The translations under genes were made by a program, and so were the position numbers. From a virus (Duplodnaviria > Heunggongvirae > Uroviricota > Caudoviricetes), in IMG/VR virus record IMGVR_UViG_2534681703_000014, positions 1 to 45,442 of that record: a stretch of DNA of 45,442 nucleotides; one strand, 5' to 3'. The notes beneath the pieces were generated by a model. It was not told the origin of the DNA. It worked only from the letters and a program-made list of their open reading frames with translations, and did no database searches. Positions 16,767 to 17,076 of the stretch are shown piece by piece (positions within the stretch are counted from its first letter, which is position 1; each line of letters starts with the position of its first letter).

Positions 16767-16842
16767 GGCCCTTTAGCTCAGTGGTGAGAGCGAGCGACTC
16801 ATAATCGCCAGGTCGCTGGTTCAAATCCAGCAAGGGCCACCA
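16767..16842 (+). tRNA. tRNA with CAU anticodon, resembling E. coli tRNA-Ile2 (ileX-like); Met cannot be excluded
   Basis: Manual cloverleaf: acceptor GGCCCTT/AAGGGCC, D-arm GCTC..GAGC, anticodon loop CTCATAA, T-arm GCTGG-TTCAAAT-CCAGC, 3' ACCA. Confidence 0.85.
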
Positions 16843-16843
16843 A

Positions 16844-16920
16844 CCGCCACTAGCTCATCAGGAAAGAGCGTCAACCCTTTAAGTTGAGTGTGCGAGGTTC
16901 GAGTCCCCGGTGGCGGTCCA
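16844..16920 (+). tRNA. Atypical tRNA-like gene, apparent anticodon UUU (Lys) with C33 and U73
   Basis: Acceptor CCGCCAC/GTGGCGG, D-arm GCTC..GAGC, anticodon stem TCAAC/GTTGA with loop CCTTTAA, T-loop TTCGAGT with one stem mismatch, 3' TCCA. Confidence 0.5.
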
Positions 16921-16922
16921 GT

Positions 16923-16998
16923 GCCGACTTAGCTCAGTAGGTAGAGCAACTGACTTGTAATCAGTAGGTCACCAGTTCGATTCCGGTAGTCGGCACCA
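16923..16998 (+). tRNA. tRNA-Thr (UGU), thrU-like
   Basis: Acceptor GCCGACT/AGTCGGC, anticodon stem ACTGA/TCAGT with loop CTTGTAA, T-loop TTCGATT, 3' ACCA. Confidence 0.85.
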
Positions 16999-17001
16999 TA
17001 T

Positions 17002-17076
17002 GCGGGCATCGCATAATGGCTATTACCTCAGCCTTCCAAGCTGATGATGCGGGTTCGATTCCCGCTACCCGCTCCA
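17002..17076 (+). tRNA. tRNA-Gly (UCC), near-identical to E. coli glyT
   Basis: Sequence GCGGGCATCGCATAATGGCTATTACCTCAGCCTTCCAAGCTGATGATGCGGGTTCGATTCCCGCTACCCGCTCCA; anticodon loop CTTCCAA; differs from my recollection of glyT at only a few positions. Confidence 0.9.

Follow-up and report, generated by a model that had tools for sequence, protein, structure and literature searches.

A mosaic tRNA gene cassette with copies of host thrU and glyT in the late region of a lambda-like Escherichia coli prophage

Where does a tight cluster of four tRNA genes between the antiterminator gene and the lysis genes of a prophage come from, and what could it be good for? This question is raised by the virus record IMGVR_UViG_2534681703_000014 (Caudoviricetes), the whole stretch of which (45,442 nucleotides (nt), positions 1 to 45,442) we refer to as the window. 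The window represents a lambda-type prophage with a lambda-like integrase, a nin-type region (DUF968, RusA, Q gene of the family PF06530) and lambda-type structural genes that are approximately 87% identical to those of mEp460 and phi458. The first-pass annotation had described the tRNA cluster as a set different from the classical ileZ-argN-argO genes of Stx phages, which may have been captured from a host operon. Our analysis points to a mosaic variant of the classical cassette. With moderate confidence we read it as a derivative of ileZ-argN-argO that has taken up host-derived thrU and glyT, and the most likely function of which would be the supply of tRNAs for the codons AUA, ACA and GGA.

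Composition and origin of the cassette

tRNA genes were called with ARAGORN in the 45-kb window and with the Rfam family RF00005 (gathering threshold 29 bits). ARAGORN detected exactly four tRNA genes, all of them on the plus strand and located within 16767-17076:

16767-16842, plus strand: gene 1, tRNA of the Ile2 type, anticodon CAU (labelled Met by ARAGORN), Rfam score 72.5 bits
16844-16920, plus strand: gene 2, 77 nt, anticodon UUU, nominally Lys, Rfam score 44.4 bits
16923-16998, plus strand: gene 3, tRNA-Thr(UGU), Rfam score 73.8 bits
17002-17076, plus strand: gene 4, tRNA-Gly(UCC), Rfam score 52.3 bits

The E-values of the Rfam matches range from 2e-14 to 2.5e-06, the genes are separated by the spacers A, GT and TAT (1, 2 and 3 nt), and the 3' CCA is encoded in all four. 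These are real tRNA genes and not chance matches, and the first-pass description of four packed tRNAs was correct in anticodons, coordinates and spacer lengths. Genes 1 and 3 have a canonical anticodon loop (U33 and a purine at position 37) and fully paired stems. Gene 2 departs from this pattern by C33 and an A.C mismatch in the T-stem, and gene 4 by the mismatches C6.A67 and C11.A24. Since unconstrained minimum free energy folds of single tRNAs did not yield a cloverleaf even for good genes, constrained cloverleaf energies were used instead.

For comparison we used the K-12 loci and the cassette of the phage Stx2a_F349 (AP012530), in which ileZ-argN-argO is indeed found between Q and stx2A, as had been assumed. 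Gene 1 is identical to ileZ of this phage (76/76 nt), while its identity to K-12 ileX is 89.5%; its homologue is labelled tRNA-Ile by PGAP. At a larger scale, positions 16702-16920 of the window align at 90.5% to the ileZ-argN region of many Stx2 phages, and the 65 nt upstream of gene 1, including a promoter-like element directly preceding the cassette, are common to Stx phages. Thus, ileZ as the first gene and the shared upstream region are both present. The position is the same as well, since both cassettes follow Q and precede late cargo and lysis genes, although toxin cargo is present in the Stx phages only. In contrast, the second gene is not argN (UCG). It has the same scaffold (84% identity) and is preceded by the same 1-nt spacer, but its anticodon is UUU and three of the seven loop positions are changed. 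The gene argO (UCU) is absent, and copies of thrU and glyT are found in its place. Proper annotation therefore does not turn the array into the standard ileZ-argN-argO set. The view that it is a different set held for the argO slot, which is occupied by thrU and glyT; it did not hold for the first half of the cassette, where ileZ is identical, gene 2 is built on the argN scaffold and the upstream region is shared. In the O157 prophage PPompW the array reads ileZ-UUU-argO. This indicates that the slots of the cassette recombine, which argues that the array in the window is a mosaic variant of the classical cassette and not an unrelated set.

The body of gene 2 resembles that of argN in its unusual features, namely C1-G72, the discriminator U73 and the A.C mismatch in the T-stem. 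The anticodon loop reads CCUUUAA (CUUCGAA in argN), with C33 instead of the near-universal U33, and apart from C33 it corresponds to the loop of host lysT (CUUUUAA). With these features, the gene deserves the designation "atypical UUU" which it was given at first sight. Compared to argN, the anticodon stem contains a compensatory G-C to A-U exchange, and the acceptor stem consists of Watson-Crick pairs throughout. The loop is unchanged in 56 of the 57 surveyed copies of this allele. To look at the slot as a family, 28 distinct slot-2 alleles were aligned in register and compared with 500 shuffles and with slid controls. In the alignment 96.4% of the cells are paired and 6 of the 21 pairs are changed on both sides. 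None of the 500 shuffles was as high in pairing or covariation score, and the slid controls gave zero to one such pairs. These data indicate that the slot-2 scaffold is under structural constraint while its anticodon differs by lineage (UCG, UCU or UUU).

Outside the window, a short form of slot 2 (73-74 nt) was observed at the loci L011, L051, L101, L207, L140, L038, L085, L151 and L250-L294. At least nine 5-nt variants (TAAAT, TTAAT, ATAAT, ATGAT, TGGAT, TTTAT, GTGAT, TGAAT and CAGGT) are found here between CAAC and GTTG in an otherwise identical 68-nt body. According to a rough count, the rate of change per site is over 30 times higher in this loop than in the remainder of the molecule, and the loop does not have the length of a normal anticodon loop, being shorter. 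The allele of the window does not show this variability. On other slot-2 bodies we found the 6-nt variants CCAGGT, CCAGAT, CTTGGT, CAGGAT, CTCAGT and CTTGGG.

Genes 3 and 4 had been noted as near-copies of host thrU and glyT, and the alignments bear this out: gene 3 is identical to K-12 thrU (76/76 nt), and gene 4 matches K-12 glyT at 73 of 75 positions (97.3%), the changes being U11C and G67A. The host operon thrU-tyrU-glyT-thrT is located upstream of tufB in K-12, as stated in the first-pass annotation. A survey of IMG/VR yielded 119 loci with a thrU-glyT junction, and 117 phage copies were used for the allele counts of genes 3 and 4. The exact thrU sequence is shared by 80 of the 117 copies of gene 3, and 94 of the 117 glyT copies are identical to host glyT; C11 alone was found five times and A67 alone once. 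The gene order, thrU followed by glyT, is that of the host operon. In the window, homology to the operon ends at the mature tRNA ends and the host flanks are not retained. The spacer TAT between genes 3 and 4 could be a remnant of these flanks (T... and ...AT), but such a match has a chance expectation of approximately 6% and is weak evidence.

More of the operon is preserved in the loci L297 (2144-2419, minus strand) and L298 (3008-3283, plus strand), in which the host spacer TCAAGTCC and nt 1-35 of tyrU come after ileZ-UUU-thrU. The host-like segment is identical to K-12 at 120/120 positions, including the thrU-tyrU spacer, which has 8 nt in the host. The tyrU fragment ends in its anticodon loop, and beyond it the sequences of the two contigs differ from that of the host as well as between themselves; both contigs belong to one IMG/VR genome and show the same block in two prophage contexts. 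This tyrU relic argues that host operon DNA entered the cassette at this position. Together with the identity of gene 3 to thrU, the usual gene-4 allele being glyT, and the conserved gene order, it supports the suggestion that the two genes were captured from the host operon, of which tyrU is missing here. However, the slot-2 allele of L297 and L298 is a derived form with a deletion in the D-arm, and the relic may thus reflect a later recombination between phage thrU and chromosomal thrU instead of the original capture. A thrU-tyrU' relic next to phage DNA was present in none of 5426 complete E. coli genomes, and the upstream flank of host glyT in no viral contig of IMG/VR. The thrU and glyT copies are identical to the host genes even where the genes in slots 1 and 2 have diverged; recombination with the host would explain this persistent identity.

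Two further alleles of slot 3 should be mentioned. The second commonest phage Thr(UGU) allele, found in L012 and 21 other IMG/VR loci, is thrU with the D-loop changes U16C and U20C, and it is associated with UCU in slot 2 and not with the haplotype of the window. The change U16C is the same as that reported to impair cleavage of tRNA-Lys by the nuclease AriB (see below). In SerU-LTIIb (L009, 1122-1275), the Thr(UGU) slot contains a thrU-like body with the anticodon UCU (G35C and three other changes), so that the anticodon is switched in slot 3 as well.

Possible functions of the cassette

According to the reading that we prefer, the cassette belongs to the late-region leader of an E. coli lambda-like prophage, between Q and the holin genes. 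Its ileZ would have been kept, the argN-type loop (CUUCGAA or CUUCUAA, Arg) would have been changed to CCUUUAA (nominally Lys), and the argO slot would have been filled from host thrU-tyrU-glyT operon DNA, which is now reduced to thrU-TAT-glyT. One precursor comprising all four genes would be transcribed from a conserved promoter located 9 nt upstream, and late read-through transcription probably also covers the cassette. The precursor would then be cut by host RNase P and 3' exonucleases, the CCA ends being already encoded. The benefit for the phage would lie in additional tRNA-Ile2(CAU), Thr(UGU) and Gly(UCC), which read AUA, ACA and GGA, all of them codons with a final A. Late and early phage genes were therefore compared with 42 annotated K-12 genes with respect to codon usage:

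ACA share of Thr: late 22.0%, early 27.6%, K-12 10.2% (late versus K-12, p 1.5e-08)
GGA share of Gly: late 15.6%, early 28.4%, K-12 7.8% (late versus K-12, p 1.4e-06)
AUA share of Ile: late 7.7%, early 21.7%, K-12 4.2%
AAA share of Lys: late 67.8%, early 72.6%, K-12 73.9%

The three codons to which the first-pass annotation had drawn attention, ACA, GGA and AUA, are enriched 1.8-5 fold in the phage genes when compared to the K-12 sample. This fits codon supply by genes 1, 3 and 4. The same argument was put forward for the tRNA-Thr(UGU) gene downstream of Q in the phage SfI, with an ACA share of 17.3% versus 7.1% (PMC3636060).

Several observations weigh against this reading as a whole. The codon AAA is not over-used, so that the AAA/AAG enrichment test fails for gene 2, and a single K-12 locus already contains six or more Lys(UUU) genes; codon supply thus does not explain gene 2. 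Further, AGA, AGG and CGA are over-used too, yet both Arg decoders were lost from the cassette, which means that its composition does not simply track demand. The constrained cloverleaf of gene 4 has an energy of -16.1 kcal/mol, compared to -27.5 kcal/mol for host glyT, and another fold is favoured. Last but not least, the true late promoter (pR') of this prophage's Q was not located, and 1.6 kb of genes on the reverse strand separate Q from the cassette.

A different explanation is that the cassette replaces tRNAs which are destroyed by defence nucleases, with gene 2 as a cleavage-proof tRNA-Lys on an Arg-type body. We consider this doubtful as an explanation for the cassette, although a general counter-defence hypothesis for phage tRNAs has already been published (PMC10264068). 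The nuclease AriB of the PARIS system has Lys(UUU) and Thr(UGU) as prime targets and needs the sequence U36-A-A-U-C|A41 and U16; its cleavage is abolished by U39A and impaired by A41C and U16C (PMC12409363). The P2 protein Old, which blocks lambda, has Thr(UGU) (tRNA-ThrU) as its prime target and cuts at paired CNG motifs (PMC12445682), and Thr tRNAs are also hit by HepS of Gifsy-1, for which Thr(UGU) is a secondary target (PMC13043305). Gene 2 contains U36-A-A-G-U-U (G39, U40, U41) and C16 and is thus devoid of the AriB determinants U39, C40, A41 and U16, and it is also devoid of the paired CNG motifs used by Old. Its C33 is located at the site, 5' of the wobble base, at which PrrC cuts tRNA-Lys. 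Also in favour of this explanation, the loop is that of lysT save for C33 and is virtually constant among the copies, and a second, divergent UUU allele from Buttiauxella is likewise without U33 (it has A33).

However, alteration at a nuclease site is seen in gene 2 only. Gene 3 is identical to host thrU and carries all AriB and Old determinants; it therefore cannot be a resistant variant, and we rejected it as an Old- or PARIS-resistant tRNA. Against P2 Old, over-expression of the host tRNA-ThrU conferred "little to no protection" (PMC12445682). Genes 1 and 4 are not known nuclease targets. Even for gene 2, the Arg-like body, the T-stem mismatch and C33 itself weigh against a counter-defence role, and so do the facts that several annotation pipelines do not call this gene and that the copy in the O157 prophage PPompW has a 1-nt deletion in the D-arm.

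The closest precedent is phage T5, whose variants of tRNA-Lys(UUU), Thr(UGU) and Asn(GUU) neutralise PARIS (PMC11464382, PMC12409363). T5 and the window have in common a phage Lys(UUU) altered at the anticodon-stem and D-loop positions needed by AriB, alongside a Thr(UGU) gene. Resistance and charging were shown for the T5 tRNAs. In contrast to T5, the Thr gene of the window is host-identical and expected to be sensitive to AriB, and the phage is temperate. Judged by its sequence, gene 2 may act as a cleavage-proof tRNA-Lys. One may speculate further that slot 2 is a phage scaffold with a repeatedly rewritten anticodon, that gene 2 of the window is a nuclease-proof spare tRNA-Lys, and that the family is a scaffold on which anticodons can be replaced quickly when defence systems exert selection, but taken together we regard these assumptions as improbable.

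It is also unlikely, in our opinion, that the cassette is a mere passenger or relic, inherited with a late-region module via lambdoid recombination and contributing little, in which genes 2 and 4 drift to pseudogenes while ileZ and thrU are intact. In favour of this explanation, both changes in gene 4 break pairs in the Rfam alignment and are rare among relatives, and the three deposited phages that have this array show the host bases at the two sites. The glyT-like genes of E66 and SerU-LTIIb also have A67 but compensate it with U6 (U6-A67), whereas gene 4 of the window has C6 and in addition C11, so that both pairs are broken. The glyT copy in the window is therefore probably impaired or weakened. 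In addition, gene 2 scores lowest of the four in Rfam and deviates from the canonical tRNA pattern. In other prophages, each of the four genes occurs in many variants that were seen once and break a pair, and the cassette is found in ever new combinations with Q and lysis modules. On the other hand, the slot-2 cloverleaf is maintained by compensatory changes, as described above, and the U6 exchange in the sister lineage is of the same kind. The hexamers of the promoter are conserved, and 7-15% of the complete E. coli genomes have kept the cassette. We favour codon supply by genes 1, 3 and 4 over decay.

Promoter, genomic surroundings and distribution

The cassette and its neighbourhood comprise the following features in addition to the tRNA genes:

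14617..14973, plus strand: late antiterminator Q gene, 118 amino acids (aa), Pfam PF06530 Phage_antitermQ, E 3.7e-45
14987..16534, minus strand: three-gene insert, proteins of 128, 81 and 303 aa (from the list of open reading frames (ORFs))
16622..16650, plus strand: intrinsic-terminator-like hairpin AAACCCGC-ATCAA-GCGGGTTT followed by a T run (terminator scan)
16729..16757, plus strand: sigma-70-type promoter-like element, -35 TTGCAA at 16729-16734, 17-nt spacer, -10 TATTAT at 16752-16757
17077..17760, plus strand: non-coding trailer of 684 nt, from the cassette to the first holin gene
17761..19040, plus strand: lysis genes, two holin-family genes and a GH108 endolysin gene (Pfam PF16931, PF05449, PF05838 and PF09374)

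The promoter-like element stops 9 nt before ileZ, and the GC-rich stretch CCTGCGCCC then reaches to 1 nt before this gene. In Stx2a_F349, PPompW, PhiR47_1 and E66 both hexamers are conserved at the same distance from each other, while the DNA further upstream diverges. Among the surveyed loci the hexamers are kept in approximately 12 of 15 distinct upstream variants, despite changes in the spacer sequence and in the upstream DNA. Since the element occurs behind Q genes of three unrelated families (PF06530, PF06323 and PF03589), it is probably part of the cassette, and we predict that it is its own tRNA-type promoter. For the same reason, it is unlikely to be a Q-specific late promoter pR'.

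Q is the closest forward-strand gene upstream of the cassette, and its counterpart in the syntenic E66 prophage is annotated as "antiterminator Q family protein". The three genes of the insert (14987-15373, 15374-15619 and 15623-16534, all on the minus strand) are located between Q and the cassette and do not belong to the latter; the arrangement of Q, reverse-strand insert and tRNA genes is also present in E. coli E66. None of the three proteins has a match in Pfam, and the two small ones are without any family match. The 303-aa protein (15623-16534, minus strand) corresponds to the PADLOC candidate defence family PDC-S42 (E 3.3e-53). A hairpin homologous to that at 16622..16650 is found upstream of the cassette promoter in PPompW, PhiR47_1 and E66. 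It could act as an insulator or represent the tR' that belongs to a different type of Q.

Downstream of the cassette, the trailer contains a strong terminator-like hairpin at 17440-17459, which is followed by a T run to approximately 17466 (terminator scan). Apart from the tRNAs, no Rfam family was detected between 16400 and 17900 at E<=1. The entire trailer recurs in SerU-LTIIb (87%) and L092 (97%). A block of 85 nt at approximately 17215-17300 is present in about 30 of the cassette loci retrieved, the remaining trailer in only 5-10; this block, which is without Rfam match, may be the start of a small ORF or an RNA element.

Other RNA-related genes were observed elsewhere in the window. A QueH-type epoxyqueuosine reductase (tRNA modification) is encoded at 11680-12366 on the plus strand (PF02677, E 1.6e-65), which places it in the nin region, a few kb before the cassette. 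The sok antisense RNA (Rfam, 106.7 bits) and a Hok/Gef toxin ORF (PF01848) are located at 12434-12605 and 12603-12758, both on the plus strand, and the small RNA DicF at 4818-4869 on the minus strand (Rfam, 68.6 bits). Sok/Hok and DicF are typical cargo of lambdoid prophages of the Qin/Rac type.

The cassette is widespread in E. coli. Of the 5426 complete genomes, 398 contain 80% or more of the 431-nt cassette region, and 827 contain 80% or more of the gene-2 segment. The same four-gene array is found in three phage records in GenBank (vB_EcoM-606R7, vB_EcoS-689R5 and PhiR47_1). Among the 119 surveyed IMG/VR loci, 52 have the anticodons CAU-UUU-UGU-UCC as in the window and 27 have CAU-UCU-UGU-UCC, while the remaining ones are truncated or have odd alleles in slot 2. 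Two haplotypes predominate: one consists of the ileZ of Stx phages, UUU, and thrU and glyT identical to those of the host, and the other of an ileZ variant, UCU, a Thr gene with C16 and C20, and glyT identical to that of the host. A scan of contigs with the 3' end of ileZ was unspecific, since its 120 matches were mostly from unrelated phyla and only approximately 20 were enterobacterial cassettes. Annotators disagree on gene 2, which is designated Lys, designated Arg or left uncalled. In the literature searched for prophage tRNA-Lys/Thr/Gly cassettes no description of the array turned up, which is weak evidence of novelty, and a literature search on ileZ/argN/argO found nothing relevant.

Related arrays and implications

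Other lambdoid phages harbour tRNA genes at the corresponding site. In SfI, Sf6, ST64T and phage 21 a tRNA-Asn(GUU)/Thr(UGU) pair is located downstream of Q (PMC3636060). It has in common with the window the lambdoid background, the Thr(UGU) gene behind Q and the enrichment of ACA as a rationale, but the partner genes are different and the Thr gene of the window is an exact copy of host thrU. An Asn-Thr-Gly array was found in one of the surveyed loci (L078).

Phage T4 harbours a larger tRNA cluster (Arg-UCU, Ile-CAU, Thr-UGU, Gly-UCC, Ser, Pro, Leu and Gln), which is likewise tightly packed, with spacers of a few nt, and is processed from multimeric precursors. It overlaps with the cassette in decoding AUA, ACA and GGA, and with the UCU haplotype also in decoding AGA. 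However, T4 is virulent and its tRNAs have diverged from those of the host, whereas two of the four genes in the window are host-identical or nearly so.

Viewed as a whole, the cassette is a common and already annotated, ordinary example of lambdoid tRNA genes behind Q, and it therefore changes little. It is a clean example of the uptake of host tRNA operon DNA by a phage cassette, and a tyrU relic is still present in a relative. Because the cassette apparently has its own tRNA-type promoter, its expression in lysogens may not depend on Q. Its one unusual part is the anticodon switching on the conserved scaffold of gene 2, which is worth following up. If gene 2 were a functional, cleavage-resistant tRNA-Lys, its annotation (Lys, Arg or uncalled) would need care, and temperate phages would join T5-like phages in countering defences of the PARIS and PrrC types.

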